Below are positions 5,672 to 55,737 of a DNA stretch of 64,000 bases, in pieces. The DNA lies in NCBI GenBank assembly GCA_017405525.1, contig JAFRAH010000001.1, positions 31,024 to 95,023 on the forward strand, read 5' to 3'. Origin of the DNA: Synergistaceae bacterium. Its GTDB lineage: Bacteria; Synergistota; Synergistia; Synergistales; Aminobacteriaceae. Made by a program: the position numbers and the translations under genes. Numbering within the stretch: the first letter of the stretch is position 1; each line of letters starts with the position of its first letter. A model generated the notes under the pieces. The model did not search any database and had not been told where the DNA came from. It worked only from the letters and a program-made list of their open reading frames with translations.

Positions 5672-7741
5672 TTGAACCTAAAGAAAATTTTACCGCCTTT
5701 ATTCATTTTCACGATAGCTTTATCCTCATGTGCAGAGCCAGCCACGCCAGCAAGAAGGCAACCAGCACCGCCCTCACCGCCTCAGGAGGCCTCTGCTGAA
5801 TCATCGACTGCCATTAATGAGAGCAACATCATAGCAACCGCAAGGGACATGAGGATCGCAAACCGCATAGAGTTCAACGTAAAGGACTGGGAGCTTTCAC
5901 AGTTCCTTCTTTTCATGTCCGAGATACTGGAGAAAAATATCATTGTCCCGCCCAACATAAACGCAAAGATCACAGTAATAACTCACCGGCCTGTTGACAG
6001 GAACGCCGCGCGGGAAGTAATGCTTTCGACCCTCCAGATGCATAACTTCTCACTTCAGGACATGGGGAGCTACTACATAGTTCGGCAGGGAGGAGTGAGC
6101 TCAACGCCCGAAGTCTACAGGAGCAGGTCAGGACCTAATCTTGGCGAAGAGATAGTAACCTACATTGTCCCTGTGGATTACGTCGCGGCAAATAACATAG
6201 TGGCTCCACTTCAGCAGGCGTTCGGGCCGGGCAGTCTTATCGTTATGTCTGTGGGGGACGGTGGAAAAGATATACTCGTTCAAGGCCGGGCCTCTGATGT
6301 CCGTAAGGCTCTGGACTTCATCCGCAAGATGGATACACCGCAGAGCGCGAGGATTAGCCGGACGTTCGAGCTCAGGTACGGAGATCCAGCCACTGTTGCC
6401 GCACAGCTCAACGCCATAGCACAGGCAAACGGTCCAATGCAGGGGCTCAATGCCATAGCCGACGCTCCGAGCAAGAAAATCATAGCAGTAGGGAGCAGGT
6501 CAGCAGTCGATTACGCCGCGAAGGTCATACGTGAACTTGACGTTGACAGCAAGATAGGCGACTTCCACATCTACAAGCTCAAGAACATTGACGCAACAGC
6601 AGCCGCCGAACAGGTCGCTAAAGTTCTTGCCACAACCGGGACAATGCTGGGGGCAGACGCAGCAAGGTTCCCGGCAACCGTTGTTCCTGACGTTGCGACA
6701 AACAGCCTCATATTCGCGGCAACACAAAGGCAGTTCGACTCGCTAGTTCCCATCCTTGACGCAATAGACGTTCAGCCCAAGCAGATATTATTGCGGGGGT
6801 TCATCGCCGAAATCAACGTGTCCAACCTGGAGAACAACGGCATAGACTGGAACGTAGTGGGCGGCCAAATGTGGGATGACCTTCTTCTTGGCGGTAACTT
6901 GTCGCTTGGTGAGGCTACAGTGCCTTCAACCTTCATGCAGTGGTTCAATGACCTCTCGAAACAGGAAGAGCTCATCGACAGGAACGGCTCAACCTACAGC
7001 GTAACGAACTATCAGCCCATGGCTCTCATGTATGCGACGATTGAACTCCTGAAACGCTACAATGCCGTGAACATTCTTTCAGTCCCGCGCCTAATGTGTG
7101 TCGACAACAAAGAAAGCTCGTTCCAGGTCGGGCAGGTTATCCCCGTCCTTAAGGGCGCAACGTCAGACCTGAGCAACCCTTCAGCAGTTCAGAGCAACTA
7201 TGACTACAAGGACACAGGATTAACCCTGACAGTAACACCCCACATAAGGAGCGGCAACCTCGTAGCTATGGACATAAAGCAAACTACCGAAGATGTCATG
7301 ACCCCGGCGGGAGTCCAGACACCAATAACCTCAAAGCGTGAGGTGAATACTTCCGTTATAGTTGGTGATGGAGAGACGATAATTCTCGGCGGAATGATAA
7401 AGGAAACTGAGACCTCAATGAAACGCAGAGTTCCCGGCCTGTCATATATCCCGTTAATCGGCGGGCTCTTCCAGAAAATCTCAAAGGAGAAACAGAAGGT
7501 TGACTTTGTGATCTTCCTCACCCCTCAGATTATCGAGAACCCTGACGAGATGAGGAGGGCAACAGCAAGTTCATCGGGATTCAGGACACGGTTTGCCGAG
7601 CCTGATACTGACTTGGGATTTTCCGACCTCATGCCCGCAAGAGCTAGAAGTGAGCTCCTCAGCGTTGACGTTAGCCCGTTCGAGGCCGACATAGATATAC
7701 GTTTCAGGGAGCTCTACCAGAAGAGCCTTCGGAGGAGATAG
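5672..7741 (+). CDS. gspD: type II secretion secretin GspD, with lipoprotein-type signal peptide
   Basis: Canonical secretin C-domain: VPRLMCVDNKESSFQVGQVIPV, DYKDTGLTLTVTPHI, VIVGDGETIILGGMI, VPGLSYIPLIGGLFQ, VIFLTPQII. The N-terminus FIFTIALSSC has a lipobox. TTG start. Confidence 0.9.
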   Translation: MNLKKILPPLFIFTIALSSCAEPATPARRQPAPPSPPQEASAESSTAINESNIIATARDMRIANRIEFNVKDWELSQFLLFMSEILEKNIIVPPNINAKITVITHRPVDRNAAREVMLSTLQMHNFSLQDMGSYYIVRQGGVSSTPEVYRSRSGPNLGEEIVTYIVPVDYVAANNIVAPLQQAFGPGSLIVMSVGDGGKDILVQGRASDVRKALDFIRKMDTPQSARISRTFELRYGDPATVAAQLNAIAQANGPMQGLNAIADAPSKKIIAVGSRSAVDYAAKVIRELDVDSKIGDFHIYKLKNIDATAAAEQVAKVLATTGTMLGADAARFPATVVPDVATNSLIFAATQRQFDSLVPILDAIDVQPKQILLRGFIAEINVSNLENNGIDWNVVGGQMWDDLLLGGNLSLGEATVPSTFMQWFNDLSKQEELIDRNGSTYSVTNYQPMALMYATIELLKRYNAVNILSVPRLMCVDNKESSFQVGQVIPVLKGATSDLSNPSAVQSNYDYKDTGLTLTVTPHIRSGNLVAMDIKQTTEDVMTPAGVQTPITSKREVNTSVIVGDGETIILGGMIKETETSMKRRVPGLSYIPLIGGLFQKISKEKQKVDFVIFLTPQIIENPDEMRRATASSSGFRTRFAEPDTDLGFSDLMPARARSELLSVDVSPFEADIDIRFRELYQKSLRRR

Positions 7742-7745
7742 CCAG

Positions 7746-9263
7746 ATGCCCGCAGAAGGAACTCTTGAACGTCCCGCTGAAACTCTCCCTCCCCTTCCCG
7801 ATGCGAAAGAAGTATCCAGTCTACTGCCTGACGGAATGAGTCTCGACATTCTCAGACAGGCGGGAATAGTTCCCCTGAGAGTTGATGACGGTGTTCTTGT
7901 TGTGGGGGCATCAAATTTTGACTCGCTCCCAAAAGCCCAGATGCTTGGTGTTGCTTTGGGTTTCCCGGCTGACATTGAGATACGGGACGAAAAGGAGATA
8001 GGCGACCTCCTTCACACACTCTATGACTTGAGGAGTGTAGCTGCTGACGAGGCCGCGAAAAATATCGAGGGCATCGAGGACATTGATGACCTTAGCCGTG
8101 AGGATGTCTTGAGTGATTCGGTTGATGTCCCGGTTATACGCCTCGTTAATGGGCTTTTCCGTGATGCGCTGAAACAGAGAGCTACTGATATTCACGTAGA
8201 GCCGTATGAAGACGAGGTGCTAATTCGCTTCAGGATTGACGGGGTATTACAGGACAGGTTGAGGCTTCCCCGCTCAAACCAGGCACCGCTAACCAGCCGC
8301 ATAAAGGTTATGAGCAGGATGGACATTGCCGAACACATGACCCCGCAAGATGGACGTATTGGCCTCACGGTTGGCGACAGGGCGGTTGATGTCAGGGTTG
8401 GACTTGTCCCGACACAGTACGGCGAGAGAATAGCGATGCGTCTGCTCGACAAGGGGCACGGATTGATGACGCTTGAAGATTTGGGCATGGAGGAACGTGA
8501 ACGCAGTATCATGGACGAGCTCATACACCGCCCGCATGGAATGATACTGTTCACCGGTCCTACTGGTTCGGGAAAGTCTACGAGCCTCTACGCGATACTT
8601 CAGGCACTTGCGAGCCCGCAGGTCAACATCATCACCGTTGAAGACCCCGTAGAGTATGCACTTCCGGGAGTGTCGCAAATCCAGGTCAACGAGAAGGCAG
8701 GCGTAACGTTTGCATCAGCCCTCCGCTCAATTTTGAGGCAGGACCCGGACATAGTCATGATCGGTGAAATGCGAGACTTCGAGACTGCACACATAGGAGT
8801 TCAGGCATCATTGACGGGTCATTTGGTGCTCTCAACCCTCCACACTAACGACAGCATCAGCGCGATAATCCGACTCGTTGACATGGGGATAGAGCCCTAC
8901 CTTGCCGCAAGCTGCATGATTGGGACTGTGGCGCAGAGATTAGCCCGGAGGTTGTGCCCTCATTGCAGGCGCGAGATTACCCCTCCGGCCATGATGGCGA
9001 AACAGGGGCTCACTCGTGCGTTTGAGGCTGTGGGTTGCTCCGAGTGCCACAACACGGGCTACAGGGGACGCGTCGGACTCTATGAGCAGTTCGTGGTGAA
9101 CGAGGCCATACAGGAGGCGTTTGTGTCGGGAGCTCCGGCCTCAAAACTCAGGGACATAGCACGGGAATCAGGGTTCAAGACCTTGTGGGAGATTGGGCTT
9201 TCGGCGGTGCAGTCGGGCTTGACCTCGCCGGATGAGCTGACTCGTGTTGCAGGGGAGGATTAG
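7746..9263 (+). CDS. gspE: type II secretion ATPase GspE
   Basis: Walker A GPTGSGKST. GspE-type Asp/His boxes (IMIGEMRD, LVLSTLHTND). C-terminal CPHC...CSEC zinc motif. N-terminal T2SS-E N-domain. Confidence 0.9.
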   Translation: MPAEGTLERPAETLPPLPDAKEVSSLLPDGMSLDILRQAGIVPLRVDDGVLVVGASNFDSLPKAQMLGVALGFPADIEIRDEKEIGDLLHTLYDLRSVAADEAAKNIEGIEDIDDLSREDVLSDSVDVPVIRLVNGLFRDALKQRATDIHVEPYEDEVLIRFRIDGVLQDRLRLPRSNQAPLTSRIKVMSRMDIAEHMTPQDGRIGLTVGDRAVDVRVGLVPTQYGERIAMRLLDKGHGLMTLEDLGMEERERSIMDELIHRPHGMILFTGPTGSGKSTSLYAILQALASPQVNIITVEDPVEYALPGVSQIQVNEKAGVTFASALRSILRQDPDIVMIGEMRDFETAHIGVQASLTGHLVLSTLHTNDSISAIIRLVDMGIEPYLAASCMIGTVAQRLARRLCPHCRREITPPAMMAKQGLTRAFEAVGCSECHNTGYRGRVGLYEQFVVNEAIQEAFVSGAPASKLRDIARESGFKTLWEIGLSAVQSGLTSPDELTRVAGED

Positions 9264-9265
9264 GT

Positions 9266-10423
9266 ATGCCGTATTTCTCGTACTCAGGCTATGACGCTAA
9301 GGGCAAGACCACAAAGGGAACGATAGAAGCGGCCTCGTCAATGCAGGCAGTAGACCGTCTCAGTGAACGCGGAATAGTTGTAGTTGACGTTAAGGTTACT
9401 GAGGAGAAGAAGGGAGGGGGTAACGCGAAGATCAAGCTACTCCCACTCGAACAGCACATATTCTTCTGCCGGAGCCTCGCCTCATATCTCAAGTCGGGCC
9501 TTCAGGTAACGGAAGCACTCCGCATAATGTCCAAGCAGGCACGCGACAAGAACATGAAGCCGGTAATGGAGAAGCTATTAGCTGATGTTCAGGGAGGCCG
9601 GAAATTCCACACGGCACTAGCTGAGTCGGGGGCATTCCGTGAAAGTCTCTGGAGGGTTGCCGAATCTGGTGAACAGTCCGGGACGCTCGTGTCTGTCCTC
9701 ACTGAGGCCGCCGAGGAGTTCAAGCTCGAAGACAGCCTCAAGCGAAAGATCAGGGGTGCAATGACTTATCCCATAGTAATGGCTGTAGTTGGGATCGGTG
9801 TCGTATCGTTCATGCTCACCTACGTAGTCCCAAAGATTGCGGAGCTCTTCAACGACATGAACCAGACACTGCCACTGCCTACAAGAATGCTCATTTCAGC
9901 GTCTGACTTTCTCGGAAATTATGGGCTCTATATCCTGATTGCACTTGCGGTGATTTTCCTCTGGATGAAGCGCACAGGCAGGAGCTTTACCCTCCCGTTC
10001 ATGCGGGGGATAAGAGACCAGCTCAACCTTGCCCTTGTGATGTCCCACATAAGCACCCTCCTCAAGACAGGAATACCTCTAGTTCAGGCTTTGCGCATGG
10101 CCTCGTCAATGGACACGTACCAGCAGAGATGGCTTGATGCCGCAGAGCTCGTGAAGGCAGGCCATCGTTTCGCCGCCGCAATGGAGAGAATAGGAATGCC
10201 TGAAGATACCGTTGCAATTGTCCGTGTTGGTGAGATGGGTAGTGATTTGTCGGGAGCTCTATCGAATTTGTCCGAGCAGTGCCGCGAGACAGCACAATCA
10301 AGAATGGAGATGCTCTCGACTCTGATACAGCCGATTATGGTTTTGTCGTTGGGTTTCAGCGTTGGGTTCATCGTACTGGCAATATTGACACCAGTCTTTG
10401 ACCTTGCCGGAATAGTCAGGTAA
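9266..10423 (+). CDS. gspF: type II secretion inner-membrane platform protein GspF
   Basis: 385 aa with a duplicated GspF/PilC-type domain and three hydrophobic segments. GGAGGA SD. Immediately follows gspE. Confidence 0.9.
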   Translation: MPYFSYSGYDAKGKTTKGTIEAASSMQAVDRLSERGIVVVDVKVTEEKKGGGNAKIKLLPLEQHIFFCRSLASYLKSGLQVTEALRIMSKQARDKNMKPVMEKLLADVQGGRKFHTALAESGAFRESLWRVAESGEQSGTLVSVLTEAAEEFKLEDSLKRKIRGAMTYPIVMAVVGIGVVSFMLTYVVPKIAELFNDMNQTLPLPTRMLISASDFLGNYGLYILIALAVIFLWMKRTGRSFTLPFMRGIRDQLNLALVMSHISTLLKTGIPLVQALRMASSMDTYQQRWLDAAELVKAGHRFAAAMERIGMPEDTVAIVRVGEMGSDLSGALSNLSEQCRETAQSRMEMLSTLIQPIMVLSLGFSVGFIVLAILTPVFDLAGIVR

Positions 10424-10686
10424 GAATGAAGAAGGCGGGGCGTGTTACCGTTACAGAAGACTTATGCACTGATAAGGTTGAATATTTTACGGGCAGAACC
10501 ACAGAACAGCTTGGTTATCGCTTCTATTTTCTCTGCCCAACCGCCTATATCCAGTTCTCAATGAGACACCAATTAGCACGGATTATATCACTTGTCAGTC
10601 AGGAATTTTTTAGTCCTCCTGTAACGGTGTACCTCCTTTCTTGTTTATAAAGATGTTGAAAATTTATAGCTATTTATAACTTTTGC

Positions 10687-11634
10687 TTAACTGTTACCCT
10701 GCCTTCCTGATGCCATGCTCCCGAACATGCCCCGTATTGCGTCAAACACATCATATTTCGGACTCCATCCCGTCGCAGAACGAAGCCTCGAATTGTCGCA
10801 CCATATCACCGGGTTTTCCACAGGTCTGAATTTTTCCGGCGACACTATAACCTCAACCTTCCCATGAACTAGCGAGGCAATATACTTCAGAATTTCCTCA
10901 AGGCTATAGCATATTCCCCTGCCAACGTTGAAGACCCTTTCACTGGTATTGCTCTCAAGTATCATCCTGTAGGCCGAGACCATATCCCTGACATCACCGA
11001 AGTCTCTTTTTGCCGAGAGGTTGCCGACGTAAATCTTTCCGTTCCCGCCCGAACGCTCTATCTCCACTGCCTGCCTCACAAACGAAGGGATAACGAACTT
11101 TTCAGGCTGGCCGATGCCCGTATGGTTGAACGTCCTTGTGCTGATTATGTCCATTCCGAAGCTCGACCGATAAATTCCGGCAAAGTTCTCCTGTGCTACC
11201 TTTGAGATTCCGTATGGGTTGCTGGCATTGACGGGGTAGCTCTCAGAAATTGGGTAGGCTGAAGGCGCATATTCCTCGCTTGAGCCTATGAGGAGTATTC
11301 GTGCCTTTATGCCCGACTTCCTGACGGCCTCAAGGATATTCAGCGTTCCGTTGATGTTCACCTCTATGGTCTTCTGAGGTATCCTCCACGAGTCGCCGAC
11401 TGAGCTCACCGCCGCAAGGTTGACGACGTAATCAGGGGCTGACCTCTCCATGAGCCTCAATACACCGTCAAAGCTGAGCATGTCCAAGGAGGTATAGTCG
11501 TGGAAGAACTGCCGCGATGATTTGGGCTCCACAATGTCAGTGCCGTATACCCTGTAGCCGTGAGATGTGAACTCTTCCGCAAGGTATGAGCCAACGAAGC
11601 CCCCACTCCCGAAAATAAGAATGTTCCTGTTCAT
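10687..11634 (-). CDS. NAD-dependent nucleotide-sugar epimerase/dehydratase (SDR family)
   Basis: Rossmann motif ILIFGSGGFVGSYL and catalytic YGISK (YxxxK). ATG 11634 overlaps the stop of the upstream GT4 gene (ATGA). Confidence 0.8.
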   Translation of the reverse strand: MNRNILIFGSGGFVGSYLAEEFTSHGYRVYGTDIVEPKSSRQFFHDYTSLDMLSFDGVLRLMERSAPDYVVNLAAVSSVGDSWRIPQKTIEVNINGTLNILEAVRKSGIKARILLIGSSEEYAPSAYPISESYPVNASNPYGISKVAQENFAGIYRSSFGMDIISTRTFNHTGIGQPEKFVIPSFVRQAVEIERSGGNGKIYVGNLSAKRDFGDVRDMVSAYRMILESNTSERVFNVGRGICYSLEEILKYIASLVHGKVEVIVSPEKFRPVENPVIWCDNSRLRSATGWSPKYDVFDAIRGMFGSMASGRQGNS

Positions 11635-12712
11635 TCCGCAAGAACCTTCCTGTAGCACTCCAGGGTTTCACGCGCTGTCTTGTCCCAGCTGAAGAGTCTC
11701 AGGCGTTCACGTCCGGCAGCCCTCAGCCTCTCACGCAACGAAGTATCCTCAACGACACGGGCAATCTTTGCGGCCATGTCGTCAATGTCCGTGGGGTCGA
11801 AGTATTCTGCCGCGTCCCCTGCAACTTCAGGGAGCGAACTCGAACGTGAACACACAACAGGGCAATCACACGCGAACGCCTCAAGGAGTGGGATGCCGAA
11901 ACCTTCATATTCTGACGGGAAGACGAAGCATTCAGCGTTTGCATAGGCTTGGGATAATGCCTCGTCAGTTATGCTGGAAAGGTGGAAACGGGAAATCAGG
12001 CTGCCGATGACTTCAAGCTCTCTAGGTAGGAATACCCCCCCCCCCCTACGCAAAATACGCAAATATCATCATGTCTCTCAAGTATCGGACGCACTGCCTG
12101 AACGAAACGGATAAAATTCTTGTACCAACCCCTATTACCGACAAAGAGAATGTAGCGTGTACCAAGTGGATTTTTCCCGGCAGACTCAATTTTTGGCATT
12201 GAGTTGCCCAAGTGTATCACTGAAATTTTCTCCGGCCTTATGTCTGGGTATATCTCAAGCACATCACGCTTTGTGCTCTCAGATATTGAGATTATGTGAT
12301 CCGACGCATGAAGCATCTTCTTCTTGTTCCTGATAGTCGGCTCATCTCCTCCGAACTTCTCGTGTATCATGTCGTATACAGTTACTACGAGTTTTCCCGA
12401 ATGACCGCCCAGCATGTACGGGTCATAGTATGTCGGGTGAATTATGTCGTAACCCCTCCTGACTTCATGGAGAGCCTTCAGCTTGTTGACCCGGCTGAAT
12501 ATCCGGCGTTCAAGTCCTCTTACGATGCGATTGCTCTTGCTGTAGTCCCGGATGCCCAGCATGTCCCTGAAGTACCAGTTCCGGCTGTGCAGGCAGCTAA
12601 CCTCAACGTCAACTCCCAATTCGGGCAGACGTGAGACAACCTCGAAGAAGTACCTCGATATTCCCCCGTACCTCTGCGCAAAAAGCATCTGGTAATCATA
12701 GTAGACCTTCAC
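11631..12712 (-). pseudogene. GT4-family glycosyltransferase split into two ORFs (11996-12712 and 11631-12062) by a frameshift in a G12 tract
   Basis: The N-terminal fragment ends ...DDICVFCVGGGG. The C-terminal fragment carries FPSEYEGFGIPLLEAFACDCPVV (EX7E motif). The two frames join across the homopolymer, and 13 or 10 G would give one intact GT4 ORF. Confidence 0.75.
12035..12046 (-). repeat. 12-nt homopolymer (C12 on + strand, G12 on the coding strand)
   Basis: Counted directly: aataCCCCCCCCCCCCtacg. Encodes the GGGG run at the junction of the two GT4 fragments. Confidence 0.95.
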
Positions 12713-12801
12713 AAATCTTCCTCCTCCGCAATAAATTCACCGCTTGTGTTATGATTATAACAAACAACTTAGACGCAACTATACTAAGGAGGCAACCACC
12801 C

Positions 12802-13245
12802 ATGAAAAACAGAAAGATCAAAGGCATCATGTCATCCCGCCGTTCTGGCTTCACACTGATTGAAATTATGGTAGTCGTCGTAATTCTCGGACTTCTTGCC
12901 GCACTCGTCGTTCCCAGAATTGGCCCCCAAGTTGCTGAGGCTCAGAGAACTACTGCCGCAACACAGATACGCTCAATTGAGGACGCTCTCGAAATGTACA
13001 GGATGCACAACGGATTCTACCCCTCAACACAGCAGGGACTTGATGCACTCGTCAATGCCCCGACAACCTCACCAGTCCCAAAGAGATACGCTGAAGGAGG
13101 CTACCTCAAGAAAGTACCTGAGGATCCCTGGGGAAATCCCTACGTCTACAGGAACGTCAACGGAAGAATCACCATCATGAGCTATGGTCCTGACGGTGAA
13201 GAGGGCGGAGAAGGAGTAAATGCCGACATCACAAACGCAGACTAG
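12802..13245 (+). CDS. gspG: type II secretion major pseudopilin GspG
   Basis: SG|FTLIEIMVVVVILGLLAALVVP with Glu+5. Conserved core: ALEMYRMHNGFYPSTQQGLDALV, DPWGNPYVY, SYGPDG. TAAGGAGG SD lies 9 nt before ATG 12802, so the longer track ORF from 12631 is an artefact. Confidence 0.9.
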   Translation: MKNRKIKGIMSSRRSGFTLIEIMVVVVILGLLAALVVPRIGPQVAEAQRTTAATQIRSIEDALEMYRMHNGFYPSTQQGLDALVNAPTTSPVPKRYAEGGYLKKVPEDPWGNPYVYRNVNGRITIMSYGPDGEEGGEGVNADITNAD

Positions 13246-13741
13246 TTCACGTTCAGCCTTCACACTGATTGAGATACTGCTTGTCCTTACGATTATAGGG
13301 GTATTAGCATCGGTGTTGCTGCCGAGAATGTCTTTCTGGTTTGAGCCGCCTTCTACCATCCTTCAGAGAGCCATCGAGGAGGCCAGCGACATGGCACTTT
13401 CAGGAATACCCGTAAGGTTCTCCGTAAAGACTTCAGGGAGTTCACGAAGAGGGACAATACTAGCCGAAGCGTTCATGAAGAAGGAAGAGCCCGAAAACAG
13501 CCTGAGCTCATTTCTTGGGACTAACTCAAACAGGCCGATAGTCCTTGAGTGGCAGAACATCGACATGCGAAACCTCCCGGAAGACAGCGGCTGGAGATTT
13601 GAGCCCGCAGTAATATACTTCTACACTGACGGCTCATGTTCCCCCGCAAAAATCTCAAAGGCAGGCAGGGACGTTCCCGACAGGCTGGCAGATGAATACG
13701 TCCTCACAGTAACAGGATACTGCGCGAAAATCGAGAAGTGA
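13220..13741 (+). CDS. gspH: minor pseudopilin, GspH-like
   Basis: SRS|AFTLIEILLVLTIIGVLASVLLP prepilin N-terminus with Glu+5, about 170 aa. Directly follows and overlaps gspG. Confidence 0.55.
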   Translation: MPTSQTQTSSRSAFTLIEILLVLTIIGVLASVLLPRMSFWFEPPSTILQRAIEEASDMALSGIPVRFSVKTSGSSRRGTILAEAFMKKEEPENSLSSFLGTNSNRPIVLEWQNIDMRNLPEDSGWRFEPAVIYFYTDGSCSPAKISKAGRDVPDRLADEYVLTVTGYCAKIEK

Positions 13742-13750
13742 TACGTTCAT

Positions 13751-13787
13751 CCTCCCGTCTTGAAGCTCTCAGGGCGGGAGGTTTTTT
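13751..13787 (+). terminator. intrinsic terminator after gspH
   Basis: CCTCCCG (13751-57) pairs with CGGGAGG (13775-81), followed by T6. Confidence 0.6.
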
Positions 13788-13800
13788 CTGCCCTTTGCCC

Positions 13801-14910
13801 TCAACTCAGACCCTCAGCTATATCCTCACAGCAGCGTCTCAAGTCAAGAGCCTCAATTACTGCCTTCCTCCCCTCGAACGCAAGACGCTCACACTCTGCC
13901 TCATTCGTGCAGGCATGAAGCAGGTTAGCGGCCATCCCGTCGATGTCATCAACCTCGCTGCCAAGACCATACTTGAAGCCGCATGTTGCGCTCCTGCTGC
14001 CGAGTATGTCGGTCGTTACGGGGAAACAGCCAAGCATCATTGCCTCGTTCACGGTAACACAGAAGCTTTCCCACCTTGAGGGGAAGGCGAATATCTTTGC
14101 GTCCATGTAGAGCTCCGTCATCTCGTTACGATCCATGACAGGCCCGGTGAAATTTACCCGCTCCCTGAGTTCCGGGTGCCTCGCGTAAAAGTCATCAGCA
14201 AGCCCGGTGTTCTCCATTATTCGGCCTGTGAGTTTCAGCGTCCATGAAGGTATCTTGTCCGAAACCCTCGCGAATGCCTCAAGAAGTATCTCTGTGGCTT
14301 TCTGTTTTGTTCCGAGCCGCCCGACCGTGAAGATTACGTTTGAGCGTTCGGAATATGGCCGGAAGTCCTTTATCTCGTTTGGGTTGAGTGGGCAACAACT
14401 GTACATGATTTCCCGGTGCCAGTCCCGTGAAAGCATCTCCACGTTCTCCTTGTACTCAGTGCTAACTAGGTAGGACATCTTCAGCGTCATCTTGTGGAAA
14501 ATCAGTTTCCAGAAATTCGACATCTTCCTTGTAGGCCACCCTTCAAGCCTGAGATAAACCTTCCCTTTCGGATTGTGGAGCTTGTACGTTAGAGCCTGAA
14601 AAAATGCCGTCCTGTCGAGAATGTATATGTTGAGAACGTCTATCCTCCTTGCGTTCTTCCTGAGCCATGAGCACGAATCCTTAACCCAGTTCCCGCTAAT
14701 CCGGGGAACATCCTCAAGCCTCACTCCGGGAATGAGCTTCATAATCGGATATTCACCCTTCATGTAGGTAGCTATCATTGAGTCATAGCCGCAGTACTCA
14801 CTCATTCCGTAGGGTATCGTTGCCTTCTCCTTCATCTCGTTGCCTATGTTGCAGAGCGTGCAGAACAAAGGCCGTGAATTTTTGCCGTCCACTGTAATCA
14901 TCTTCATCAC
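13801..14910 (-). CDS. GT4-family glycosyltransferase
   Basis: C-terminal FAFPSRWESFCVTVNEAMMLGCFPV (EX7E-type retaining GT-B motif). The start (GTG 14910 / ATG 14907) overlaps the stop of the upstream ORF. Confidence 0.75.
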   Translation of the reverse strand: MMKMITVDGKNSRPLFCTLCNIGNEMKEKATIPYGMSEYCGYDSMIATYMKGEYPIMKLIPGVRLEDVPRISGNWVKDSCSWLRKNARRIDVLNIYILDRTAFFQALTYKLHNPKGKVYLRLEGWPTRKMSNFWKLIFHKMTLKMSYLVSTEYKENVEMLSRDWHREIMYSCCPLNPNEIKDFRPYSERSNVIFTVGRLGTKQKATEILLEAFARVSDKIPSWTLKLTGRIMENTGLADDFYARHPELRERVNFTGPVMDRNEMTELYMDAKIFAFPSRWESFCVTVNEAMMLGCFPVTTDILGSRSATCGFKYGLGSEVDDIDGMAANLLHACTNEAECERLAFEGRKAVIEALDLRRCCEDIAEGLS

Positions 14911-15713
14911 CTGAAAAGCAGTATCAGAAAGTTCAGCACCAAAAGAACGAGGCAGCCCCCCGAAAGCCCGGCAATGACCTTCAGCATCTTCATGGACGAA
15001 GAACCCCGCAACGTTCCTCCCGAAAATCCCTCATCCCCCGGAATTATCCCGGCTACCTCCTCACTCACTGCCTCCCTCACCTCATGGACAAGCGCAATAT
15101 TCCCCTGCTCATGCATGGCCGAAATCTCACGCGATAACTCCTCAAGCTCCCGGCTCCGTGATTTCCCCTCAGCCCTCACGAGCCCCTCAAGCCCCGAAAG
15201 AGCATCAGCATCAACCGAAGACCTCACCAAATCTTCAGGCAACGCTGAAGACTGCTCCCTGTCCTCGGCGTATGTCTCGAAGAATGCCTTTATCCCCTGC
15301 GTCAACGTGTCAATCCGTCCCGAAAACTCCTCAAGCTCATTCATGACCTCCTCACGGAATGAGGCGTTATCGTCGTCATTCTTGGGCTCTTTGGGCTGTG
15401 AGTTCCTGATGCTCTCCTCCAGCATCTCCGGGACTTTTCCCAGCATCTTCCTCAATGATGAGACTTCTTCAAGTACGCTGCCTATCGACTGGATTATCAT
15501 GCTCCGGCCAGCACGTGAGTCATCAATCCCTGAACGTATGGCCTTCTCGATTCCTGAACGCATATCCTGTGTCATCCTGTTAGTCCGCTCGATTGCCCCG
15601 GTGAAATCCCCGGAAGGTATCGCCGCATTCAGGGACTTAGTGAGTGAGGGAAGTATCAACGCAGCAAGCTCTGAGACCAAACGCGCAGTAGTAGGGTCTA
15701 ATTCTTCAGGCAT
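14907..15713 (-). CDS. hypothetical acidic helical protein with C-terminal membrane anchor
   Basis: 268 aa, Glu/Ser/Leu-rich predicted helices. Single C-terminal TM VIAGLSGGCLVLLVLNFLILLF. Translationally coupled to the downstream GT4. No family recognised. Confidence 0.5.
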   Translation of the reverse strand: MPEELDPTTARLVSELAALILPSLTKSLNAAIPSGDFTGAIERTNRMTQDMRSGIEKAIRSGIDDSRAGRSMIIQSIGSVLEEVSSLRKMLGKVPEMLEESIRNSQPKEPKNDDDNASFREEVMNELEEFSGRIDTLTQGIKAFFETYAEDREQSSALPEDLVRSSVDADALSGLEGLVRAEGKSRSRELEELSREISAMHEQGNIALVHEVREAVSEEVAGIIPGDEGFSGGTLRGSSSMKMLKVIAGLSGGCLVLLVLNFLILLFR

Positions 15714-22279: not shown

Positions 22280-22315
22280 AAAAAAAATCCCCCCTGCCTG
22301 AGACAAGCAAGGAGG
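22280..22315 (-). terminator. intrinsic terminator after the Sel1-repeat gene
   Basis: The minus-strand RNA reads CCUCCUUGC-loop-GCAGGGGGG followed by AU8. Two positions pair only as G-U on the minus strand, so the element is strand-specific. Confidence 0.6.
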
Positions 22316-44470: not shown

Positions 44471-44502
44471 AAAAAAAAATCCCCCCGCAATTTCACGGGA
44501 GG
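44471..44502 (-). terminator. intrinsic terminator after the V-ATPase operon
   Basis: The minus-strand RNA reads CCUCCCG-loop-CGGGGGG followed by AU9. One G-U pair makes it minus-strand specific. Confidence 0.6.
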
Positions 44503-53335: not shown

Positions 53336-55639
53336 CTAATTTCCGAGAAGGCTCAATATTGACTGGGGTAACTGGTTGGCTTGGGCAAGCATTGATGTTC
53401 CTGACTGGTTGAGAATCTGGAGCTTCATGAAATCCATCATAGTCTTTGCCATGTCTGCATCACGTATTCTTGACTCGGAGGCTGTGAGGTTCGTGCTTGT
53501 TGTCGTGAGGTTCGTCATTGTGTGTTCGAGGGCGTTGATGTATGAGCCAATCTTTGCCCGCTGTTTGGAGACCCTGTTTATTGCCCGGTCAAGAAGTCCG
53601 ATTGAACGTGAGGCTGTCTCTCTTGAGGCTACATTGACCCCGGAGATACCCAGTGAGTTGCTGGACATGTCGCCAAGCTGAAGGGTAAACTCCTCGCCTG
53701 AGTTCGCGCCGGTCTGGAGGGTTGTGGTGCTGTCCTTGAGGTGGAGCATTGCCGTGTACTTTTCGCCGCCAGTCAGAACGTAGCCCTTGAGGTTGTCGCT
53801 CCATGATGCAGTTATCCCCGCCATAGGGTCAAACTCAATGTCAACGTTGCTTATTGCGCCCTGAAGTATATTGCCTGAAGACTTTATCCCGGAAGCTATG
53901 TTCTTCCCTGAGTGTGCATCATAGACCGAGATGTTGTACGTGCTCTCACTGGACTCACGTACCGTGTTGAAGCCCAATACACGAAGAAGCTCATCATCAC
54001 CTTCAAGTGTGATTTCGCCGTCAGCACCGGGAATAACCGAACGAAGAAGTATTGTGCCGGGTGCTCCGTGATCTGTGTAGTCTGCAATCTCTGAGCCGTA
54101 TACGTACGTCGCGAAACGTGGAGAATCTCCCTTGATGTATTTTCCCTGATCGAGTCCTTTTTCCACAGCAGAGTCCAGTTTTTCCGTAAGGCTCCCCAAT
54201 GTGTCAGAAGCATCAAGCGTTATGCTGGTAGTCCTTCCTCCTTGCCTGAGCGTCAGTGTCTTGGGTCTCTCAAGAAGGAAATTGCCTTCAGGAGTTATGA
54301 AGTTGCTTATGTCGGAAAGTTTTTTGTTGGGTCTTGGCGGAAATTCATCATTGCTGCTTTCGTCAGCCCCTAGATCTTCACTGATTGAGTCGGCAACCAT
54401 TCCAACAAGGTCAGTCTCCCATGCAGAATATGAAGACAGCATTTTACCTTCAGTCTCATTGCAGAGGTTGTAGAACTCAGAATCCTCACTGCCAGCCTTG
54501 GGGCCTATAACGGTCAGCTTTATGTCGTCAAGGTCTGTGCTAGCATCACCGAAAAGTGCAGCCCTTACTGTCTCTTCAGTGTAGTCCGTCCTTGCACCTG
54601 CGGGAGAAAGACCACTGTCCGGGTAATTTGTGTGGTCAACGTCAGTAACTAGGATCATGTACCTGTTTTCCCCGAAGGTATCGGCATAAGTCTCTGCTGC
54701 TTTCTGTACTCCGTAGTAATTGTACGTGTCATAGCCGTATGGTGCGGTTAGGGGTGCGAGGAGCTCGGTGATCTCGTCTATGTCAGATGACCACAACGAA
54801 CCTTCATCGCTGCTTGGGTCAGTGCCGGGGGGGAATCTATATGCCACAAAGTTAGGGTCTGCAATATCAGCCGTACCGTATGTGCATATTCCGATTTCGA
54901 GGTCGTCAACACCTTTGCTCTCAATATTGCTCTTGAACGCCCTGATGTTCTCCTTCACTTTTGTCAGCATTCCGTTCATTGAGCCTGATACGTCGATAAC
55001 GAACACCACTTTTGCCGAACTTCTTGACACTGATACAGTCTCGCGGCTTATGGCAGTCATGATATTTGTCTTCTGAACCTGAGCACTGCCTGGGTCAGCC
55101 GTAATCTCTATCCTGTAGTTCCCCTCACTGCTGACCTTCTGCCCGAAATTGTCCCTGAACGTGAGGCCGCCATCAATTTTTGCCCTGACGCTTGCATCAC
55201 TTGACGACCACAAAGCCCCGCCTGACCCGTCAAGCAGCCTGTGCCGGTTGAACTGTGTCGTGCTTGCTGTCATGTCTATCTGTTTCCTGAGCTCGTCTAT
55301 CTCAAGCTGTATATATTGCCTGTCCTGTGAGGTAAGCGTGTCATTGCTGGCCTGCACTGAGAGTTCACGCATTCTCTGGAGCATCGAGTTTATTCCGCCA
55401 AGTGCACCTTCAGCCGTCTGGAGCATCGATATTCCGTCCTGTGAGTTCCTGAGTGCAACATCAAGCCCGCGTATCTGGGTGCGCATCTTCTCGGAGATCG
55501 CGAACCCTGCCGCATCGTCTGACGCTGAGTTTATGCGCAGGCCGGTAGATAGTGCCGTGATAGTTCTCTGGAGTGATGAGTTAGTCCCTGAAAGTGCATT
55601 GAACGCCGTCAATGCAGGGAGGTTGTTCGCTATTCTCAT
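53336..55639 (-). CDS. fliC: flagellin with large central insertion containing a VWA (MIDAS) domain
   Basis: N-terminus MRIANNLPALTAFNAL...LSTGLRINSASDDAAGFAISEKMRTQIRGL...LQRMRELSVQASN. C-terminus RIRDADMAKTMMDFMKLQILNQSGTSMLAQANQLPQSILSLLGN. Centre has VVFVIDVSGSM, ICTYGT and ILVTDVD. Start placed at MRIANN (ATG 55639). Confidence 0.9.
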   Translation of the reverse strand: MRIANNLPALTAFNALSGTNSSLQRTITALSTGLRINSASDDAAGFAISEKMRTQIRGLDVALRNSQDGISMLQTAEGALGGINSMLQRMRELSVQASNDTLTSQDRQYIQLEIDELRKQIDMTASTTQFNRHRLLDGSGGALWSSSDASVRAKIDGGLTFRDNFGQKVSSEGNYRIEITADPGSAQVQKTNIMTAISRETVSVSRSSAKVVFVIDVSGSMNGMLTKVKENIRAFKSNIESKGVDDLEIGICTYGTADIADPNFVAYRFPPGTDPSSDEGSLWSSDIDEITELLAPLTAPYGYDTYNYYGVQKAAETYADTFGENRYMILVTDVDHTNYPDSGLSPAGARTDYTEETVRAALFGDASTDLDDIKLTVIGPKAGSEDSEFYNLCNETEGKMLSSYSAWETDLVGMVADSISEDLGADESSNDEFPPRPNKKLSDISNFITPEGNFLLERPKTLTLRQGGRTTSITLDASDTLGSLTEKLDSAVEKGLDQGKYIKGDSPRFATYVYGSEIADYTDHGAPGTILLRSVIPGADGEITLEGDDELLRVLGFNTVRESSESTYNISVYDAHSGKNIASGIKSSGNILQGAISNVDIEFDPMAGITASWSDNLKGYVLTGGEKYTAMLHLKDSTTTLQTGANSGEEFTLQLGDMSSNSLGISGVNVASRETASRSIGLLDRAINRVSKQRAKIGSYINALEHTMTNLTTTSTNLTASESRIRDADMAKTMMDFMKLQILNQSGTSMLAQANQLPQSILSLLGN

Positions 55640-55737
55640 GGCAGCCCCCAGAAAATTCGGCAAGAGGCAACGCAAAAGATACCCTTCGGAATTAATGCCC
55701 CCGCGAAAATATTATGTGATTTCCCAGCTCTTTCCAT
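55636..55737 (-). CDS. possible 33-codon upstream ORF in the flagellin leader
   Basis: AAGGAGGG lies 10 nt before ATG 55737. The ORF MERAGKSHNIFAGALIPKGIFCVASCRIFWGLP ends in a TGA overlapping the flagellin ATG (ATGA). It may instead be untranslated leader. Confidence 0.25.
   Translation of the reverse strand: MERAGKSHNIFAGALIPKGIFCVASCRIFWGLP

Follow-up and report, generated by a model that had tools for sequence, protein, structure and literature searches.

What is known of repeat-mediated phase variation of surface glycans comes almost wholly from a small number of host-adapted pathogens, and slipped-strand change of tract length is established for poly-G/C tracts in such bacteria. Glycosyltransferases (GTs) with tracts of this kind are known from Campylobacter jejuni (lipooligosaccharide and capsule), Neisseria (lgtA, lgtC, lgtG, pglA and pglE), Haemophilus influenzae, and Helicobacter pylori. 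In the pgl system of Neisseria, the phase-variable pglA and other genes modify the type IV pilin. Pathways for GDP-D-rhamnose combine Rmd (GDP-6-deoxy-D-lyxo-4-hexulose reductase) with GT4 rhamnosyltransferases, in the S-layer glycan of Aneurinibacillus thermoaerophilus and the common polysaccharide antigen of Pseudomonas aeruginosa. A working cut-off for poly-G phase variation is a run of at least 7, and Campylobacter tracts are typically 9-10 long (PMC6321876). In this study, a run of 12 G was analyzed in a 64-kb stretch of a Synergistaceae genome (assembly GCA_017405525.1, contig JAFRAH010000001.1; this whole stretch is called the window). The tract lies inside a GT4 glycosyltransferase gene and splits it into two open reading frames (ORFs). 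With a probability of roughly 0.78, we read it as a hypermutable homopolymer in a functional GT4 gene of an uncultured ruminant-gut Synergistales bacterium, where it would act as a slipped-strand ON/OFF switch, with the copy in the window OFF. The same switch, in the OFF state, had been proposed from the letters of the window (the original prediction); it is now supported by length polymorphism in public assemblies, by ON and OFF alleles in a sister species, and by signs of selection on both halves of the gene.

A G12 tract splits a GT4 glycosyltransferase gene

Both direct reading and a homopolymer census place a run of 12 C at positions 12035-12046 of the forward strand, corresponding to G12 on the minus strand, which is the coding one. 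Apart from it, G/C runs in the 64 kb reach a length of 7 at most. Runs of C with lengths of 3, 4, 5, and 6 occur 675, 144, 29, and 9 times, respectively; lengths of 7 to 11 are absent, and length 12 occurs once. A run equivalent to at least 12 (three overlapping G10 matches) appeared in 1 of 100 dinucleotide-preserving shuffles. The tract is also the longest homopolymer of any kind in the window, as the original prediction had noticed, the next longest being A9, A8, and G7.

In its G12 form, the gene is divided into ORFs of 238 and 143 aa. The N-terminal ORF ends in ICVFCVGGGGYSYLESLKSSAA and a stop codon, the residues ICVFCVGGGG being followed by 12 out-of-frame codons before the stop. The C-terminal ORF, which begins at a mechanically assigned TTG, holds FVFPSEYEGFGIPLLEAF, which is the EX7E motif. 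When the tract length was set in silico to 10 or 13, the two ORFs merged into one open frame, of 359 or 360 aa, respectively, reading CVGGG(G)VFLPRELEVIGSL across the junction; lengths of 11, 12, and 14 led to stops and gave no single frame. In the G13 form, the tract supplies the codons of Gly223-Gly226 and the first base of Val227. The original prediction had put the tract exactly where the two ORFs meet and had stated, from a hand translation, that 13 or 10 G would fuse them into an intact GT4 protein; its coordinates, its translation, and the fusion itself all proved correct. Separate translation of the 143-aa ORF was considered and rejected as unlikely: no Shine-Dalgarno-like sequence precedes the TTG, and no in-frame start follows soon after the tract.

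The fused protein is a retaining GT4 glycosyltransferase with the GT-B fold. It matches Pfam Glyco_transf_4 over residues 15-169 (56.4 bits; gathering score 28.5) and Glycos_transf_1 over residues 178-337 (99.8 bits; gathering score 26.4). The EX7E motif is E270-GFGIPLL-E278, within the C-terminal ORF, and both glutamates are invariant in 21 homologs. An AlphaFold2 model built on these homologs has two Rossmann-like domains, as predicted with a mean predicted local distance difference test score of 92.7. In a Foldseek comparison, the model fell among retaining GT4 enzymes of solved structure. GlgM, a mannosyltransferase from mycobacteria, MshA, PimA, and BshA matched with E values of 1e-16 to 2e-20 and template modeling scores of 0.7-0.78; with PglA included, the E values range from 1e-15 to 2e-20. 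No NCBIfam equivalog model reached its cut-off for this protein. In the model, G223-G226 make up the loop that immediately follows strand 217-222 in the donor-binding domain; of these glycine positions, the 21-homolog alignment shows one as invariant and two others with a conservation of at least 90%. The G12 product lacks almost all of the donor domain, E270 and E278 included, and from the architecture of the family this fragment is expected to be inactive.

Tract length varies among public assemblies of the same species

Tract lengths were read from assembled contigs of public gut-metagenome assemblies. The 90%-identity protein cluster of the N-terminal ORF holds both split and intact forms. 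The 238-aa ORF, as in the window (P0004), was found in 17-22 contigs, and the 360-aa protein predicted for G13 was matched exactly in 6-7 contigs (P0121), so that the predicted fusion exists as an assembled sequence. Other 360-aa forms occurred in 3 and 1 contigs (P0125 and P0128), a 229-aa form in 4 (P0124), and 230-aa forms in 2, 1, and 1 (P0126, P0129, and P0131). The DNA was then read directly at 19 public loci drawn from this cluster (L001-L019). Three had G13 (L001-L003) and were in frame. Eight had G12 (L004-L011) and four had G11 (L012-L015), all out of frame. Three carried G12 followed by an extra A (L016-L018), which is in frame with Ile in place of Val, and one carried G13 followed by A (L019), which is out of frame. 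The runs behind the Logan contigs with G13, G11, G12, and G12+A are SRR12529383, SRR12529385, SRR12529387, SRR12529067, and SRR12529068. Across the 19 loci, the tract was the sole variable site inside the GT4 gene. A plain pseudogene, which the original prediction had named as an alternative, would call for further inactivating mutations, and none was present at any of these loci.

Two haplotypes were distinguished when about 7 kb surrounding the gene were aligned. Haplotype A comprises ten sequences (the window, L001, L002, L005, L006, L008, L012, L016, L017, and L019), eight of which span about 6.7-7.1 kb; they show five tract states and are otherwise identical save for one single-nucleotide polymorphism (SNP) in L012. 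Haplotype B (L004, L007, and L009) differs from it by about 25 SNPs and a 254-bp indel, and its tract is G12. A comparison of tract length among related genomes had been suggested as a check, and its outcome is favorable: G11, G12, G13, G12A, and G13A stand on otherwise identical 7-kb flanks, and the tract therefore appears to change far faster than ordinary sites. Set against a single substitution in 7,083 sites, the four or more tract changes on that genealogy would give, as a rough estimate, a tract mutation rate no less than about 3x10^4 times the per-site average. Such a bound would lie, again roughly, within the range expected for phase-variable repeats.

The tract in a sister species and other relatives

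A scan of species-representative genomes yielded 80 loci that were kept for comparison; the genome of the window itself is not among them. The nearest homologs belong to Synergistaceae/Fretibacterium, and the placement in Synergistales follows from these and from the syntenic sister genome. The closest genome relative, which represents the sister species, is an "uncultured Synergistales" metagenome-assembled genome (MAG) from red deer (L034). It shares with the window the gene order gspD-E-F, reductase, GT4, gspG, minor pseudopilin; identity to the window is 93% for GspE, 83% for GspF, 87% for GspG, 69% for the reductase, and 59% for GT4. Its GT4 gene is split at the same spot. Taking the protein cluster together with the DNA of six further public loci, the sister species shows five forms of a tract at the same codons. 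GGT+G10 gives an intact 360-aa protein (P0139); GGT+G9 and three 14-nt forms (GGT-G9-TG, GGTGT-G9, and GGTGTGT-G7) are split. The 4.8-kb flanks of these loci differ at about 12 sites, and the pattern comes from a different sequencing study than that of the window species.

In every relative with a readable motif (about 65 of the 80 loci), the glycine loop is encoded by mixed codons and contains no G run above 7; the same is true of two further syntenic orthologs (L106 and L107). In the window, GGG makes up 24.5% of glycine codons. Because the other relatives encode the conserved Gly-Gly-Gly loop in mixed codons, the G tract is derived, as judged from this comparison. This fits the proposed origin of poly-G tracts from consecutive glycine codons turned all-G, in which "three consecutive glycines become 9Gs" (PMC6321876).

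Other long G runs were seen in the surveyed loci. G10 runs lie within 4-5 kb of a GT4 homolog in two other ruminant Synergistaceae/Fretibacterium MAGs. One of them (L020, 9080-9089) looks intergenic, some 55 nt upstream of the start of a gene on the minus strand. The other (L021, 99-115) consists of G10 followed by A7 at the 5' end of a minus-strand ORF, which would be extended to an upstream ATG with one base fewer. About 580 kb of loci from other phyla contained one G/C run of at least 8, a G8 (L090).

Selection on the gene and alternative explanations

The intact orthologs of the window species and the sister species align without gaps over 360 codons. Nonsynonymous divergence (dN) is 0.30 and synonymous divergence (dS) is above 2, that is, saturated, which gives a ratio of about 0.12. 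Because dN after the tract (0.27) is as low as dN before it (0.32), the downstream half has been kept by selection. By this measure, both halves of the gene have been under purifying selection since the species split, including the half that is unreadable in the OFF state. In the same alignment, the G run is retained at the same codons in both species, despite the randomization of synonymous sites elsewhere. A plain decaying pseudogene is contradicted by this purifying selection and by the intactness of both halves at every locus read. Thus, the features by which contingency loci are recognized at the sequence level are found together here: an in-frame G/C run of at least 7, ON and OFF lengths among close relatives, and a gene that is otherwise intact and constrained.

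Several points weigh against the switch. The window shows only one such tract, and organisms that use contingency loci typically have a genome-wide set. About 28% of the contigs are in frame, which is near the one third expected for neutral length drift and gives no sign of selection for either the ON or the OFF state. Some of the public assemblies were rebuilt from samples already represented, which makes the number of independent samples smaller than that of contigs. Illumina sequencing and library amplification both make errors at long G runs; some lengths may be off by one, and the A- or T-interrupted forms may be miscalls at the G run. Reading the interrupting bases as G leaves every frame assignment unchanged.

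The proportion of in-frame alleles also bears on the possibility that the gene is dispensable and the tract a mere mutational hot spot, its lengths being fixed strain differences or products of drift and not an adaptive, reversible switch. Such neutral decay would account for that proportion, and two further observations agree with it: the glycan genes are less conserved between the two species (59-69% identity) than the secretion genes (83-93%), and the interrupted forms in the sister species could represent decay of the tract. It does not readily explain why no second frameshift or stop is found in either half, why the gap-free orthologs are as constrained downstream of the tract as upstream, or why a G run stands at the same codons in two species whose synonymous sites are saturated. 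Moreover, the tract must change very often to show five states on backgrounds with 0-1 SNP. Neutral decay is therefore considered unlikely, with a small share of the probability.

A sequencing or assembly artifact is a weaker candidate still. It would mean that the true tract has one length everywhere, for example the in-frame G13, and that G11, G12, G14, and the interrupted forms arise from errors at the homopolymer in short-read sequencing and assembly. Runs of 12-13 G are hard for Illumina chemistry and for the polymerase chain reaction; the forms G12+A, G13+A, GGTGT+G9, GGTGTGT+G7, and G9+TG resemble base miscalls at or in the G run; and the tract lengths are those of contigs alone. Against this, the commonest form is the out-of-frame G12 (17-22 contigs), and it includes a Logan contig at a depth of 84. 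Each tract state comes from up to three assembly sources (k141-type ENA contigs, XIEF21-1 scaffolds, and Logan), with two for G13 and one for G13+A; a reproducible difference between samples is not what an error-driven consensus would be expected to produce. The sister species repeats the pattern in a separate study. Logan contigs with G12 have depths of 14-84, and in four DNA runs of one study, each of which gave one G12 contig within that range of depths, no contig of alternative length was found. A search of sequencing runs for the locus listed these four and no RNA run. A single true length behind all these calls is thus very improbable, and the assembly error that the original prediction had held open as its alternative is, as a pure artifact, unlikely overall; individual length calls may still be wrong. 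The interrupted tracts, with A in L016-L019 and T in L034 and L102-L105, were each seen in more than one assembly and may be real stabilizing interruptions or Illumina miscalls.

Recoding, by which the G12 allele would still be expressed through RNA polymerase slippage or ribosomal frameshifting and the split would be only apparent or the switch leaky, has in its favor that long homopolymers are known sites of transcriptional realignment (PMC3711429) and that G12 is the commonest allele, but documented transcriptional slippage is mostly at A/T runs (PMC3711429) and a programmed shift should conserve one out-of-frame length, whereas lengths of 11-14 coexist here with in-frame alleles, which leaves it with very little probability.

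Gene neighborhood

The GT4 gene and an Rmd-like reductase gene lie as a pair inside a type II secretion cluster, with gspF on one side and gspG on the other (Table 1). Over positions 5672-15713, the order is gspD-gspE-gspF; the Rmd-like and GT4 genes on the opposite strand; gspG and a minor pseudopilin gene; and a second GT gene with a gene for a 268-aa protein, again on the opposite strand. Both gspD and gspG score above their NCBIfam cut-offs. The 268-aa protein has no Pfam or NCBIfam match. The GGAGGAGG site upstream of the GT4 gene sits in an 89-bp divergent spacer common to this gene and gspG. A promoter and terminator scan of 10350-13000 gave no convincing site: promoter-like matches numbered 5, where 2.7 are expected, and no terminator was found.

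Table 1. Positions of the GT4 gene, its tract, and neighboring features in the window
Feature	Position	Strand	Basis or remark
Rmd-like short-chain dehydrogenase/reductase gene	10687..11634	-	Pfam GDP_Man_Dehyd and Epimerase; nearest solved structure is Rmd
Whole GT4 gene, split by the tract in the window	11631..12712	-	GTG start 12712-12710, TGA stop 11633-11631; Pfam, GT-B fold model
C-terminal ORF: most of the donor-binding domain and the EX7E motif	11631..12062	-	ORF list, homolog alignment
N-terminal ORF: acceptor-side Rossmann domain and first strand of the donor domain	11996..12712	-	identical protein P0004 in 17-22 public contigs
Poly-G tract (G12 on the coding strand), putative hypermutable switch	12035..12046	-	homopolymer census, 19 public loci, shuffle control
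Ribosome-binding site GGAGGAGG, 7 nt before the GT4 GTG start	12720..12727	-	read from the sequence
gspG, major type II secretion pseudopilin, divergent from the GT4 gene	12802..13245	+	TIGR01710, 173.6 bits (cut-off 88.85)
Second GT4-type glycosyltransferase gene	13801..14910	-	Pfam; a GT2 gene takes this place in the sister species
Gene for a 268-aa protein with a hydrophobic C-terminal tail	14907-15713	-	stop overlaps the start of the second GT4 gene

The stop codon of the GT4 gene overlaps the ATG of the reductase gene (ATGA at 11634-11631), and the reductase gene is probably translationally coupled to it. Among solved structures, the reductase is nearest to two Rmd enzymes, 2pk3 (209.8 bits, E value 6.8e-61) and 6x3b (140.7 bits, E value 7.6e-40); GDP-mannose 4,6-dehydratases reach at most 98 bits. 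No curated NCBIfam equivalog cut-off was passed by the reductase. The position of the GT4 gene is kept in at least four related species, including those of L100, L106, and L107, and its partners vary: in L107, a 327-aa protein without a Pfam match replaces the reductase, and in L106, the reductase has only 216 aa. Between the window and the sister species, the glycan genes diverge faster than the adjoining secretion genes, as the identities given above indicate.

The 254-bp stretch that distinguishes the two haplotypes lies at 10446-10699 of the window, between gspF and the Rmd-like gene, and is present in haplotype A and absent in haplotype B. The deletion touches the last codons of the reductase (315 vs 311 aa). 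A mobile element was considered for this stretch and rejected, the only sign being a 13-nt imperfect inverted repeat (10447-10459 and 10616-10628), with no clear ends. Elsewhere in the window, the A9 run is at 44471-44479, in a stretch without an ORF of at least 80 aa, and is probably intergenic; the A8 run is at 22280-22287; and the G7 run is at 54827-54833, inside a 779-aa ORF (53336-55675, minus strand).

Proposed switch and its implications

For the slipped-strand switch, we infer that mispairing in replication would add or remove G one base at a time, and that these changes may be reversible within a clone. At a total length of 13 (or 10), the frame would be kept and the 360-aa enzyme made (ON). 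At lengths of 11, 12, and 14, translation would end a few codons past the tract, before the donor-binding domain with the EX7E motif, and no active enzyme would be expected (OFF). Early termination, 360 nt upstream, would abolish translational coupling in the OFF state and may cause polarity on the Rmd-like gene, whose expression is probably lowered as well. Both the transferase and the supply of the 6-deoxyhexose that is its probable donor may thereby come under the control of the switch. As a result, one sugar, possibly D-rhamnose or mannose, would be present or absent at random on what is presumably a surface glycoconjugate.

A bolder and doubtful possibility is that the GT4-Rmd cassette adds a 6-deoxyhexose to the pseudopilus of the type II secretion system, or to another product of the cluster, and does so phase-variably by means of the poly-G tract. 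If true, this would be phase-variable glycosylation tied to the fiber of a type II secretion system, in a phylum without described contingency loci; taken together with the G10 tracts near glycan genes in L020 and L021, it would point to a wider, unrecognized set of phase-variable loci in rumen Synergistota.

The mechanism itself is already known. What would be new is its occurrence in Synergistota: searches of the literature turned up no account of repeat-mediated phase variation in Synergistetes, and nothing specific on homopolymer phase variation detected in metagenomes. The locus would place the same device in an uncultured ruminant-gut commensal of this phylum, as seen in metagenome assemblies alone. 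If confirmed, it would add one more phylum to the users of contingency loci, and would suggest that rumen Synergistales are shaped by pressure on their surface sugars from phages or host immunity. Annotators would also gain a worked example of a MAG gene that is labeled a "frameshifted pseudogene" but should be read as switchable.

Comparison with known systems

The locus resembles the poly-G/C glycosyltransferases of C. jejuni, Neisseria, H. influenzae, and H. pylori in several respects. In each case, an intragenic G/C run of at least 7 lies in a transferase gene for a surface glycan, here a putative one; a change of length shifts the frame and truncates the enzyme; and ON and OFF lengths occur among near-identical genomes. 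As in those pathogens, the tract overlies glycine codons, the proposed source of such tracts (PMC6321876). It differs from them in its host, a ruminant-gut Synergistales (Synergistota) commensal that is uncultured. It differs also in the site of the tract, which is in mid-gene, in the conserved glycine loop of the donor domain, and not near the 5' end. Compared with Campylobacter, the genome G+C content is 52% instead of about 30%, and the tract is 12-13 long instead of the typical 9-10.

Similar to the pgl system of Neisseria, a GT4-fold transferase gene with a poly-G tract adjoins genes for a pilin-like fiber (gspG and the minor pseudopilin), a resemblance that is positional only, and structures of Campylobacter concisus PglA are among the fold matches of the model. 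Unlike in Neisseria, the fiber genes here are those of a type II secretion system. With the GDP-D-rhamnose pathways, the locus shares the pairing of an Rmd-like gene with a GT4 gene, the nearest solved relatives of the GT4 protein including GDP-mannose-dependent mannosyltransferases; in contrast to those pathways, no NCBIfam equivalog cut-off is reached here. The locus is notable for its phylum, its commensal rumen habitat, its conservation in two species, and its odd site inside a secretion-system cluster.

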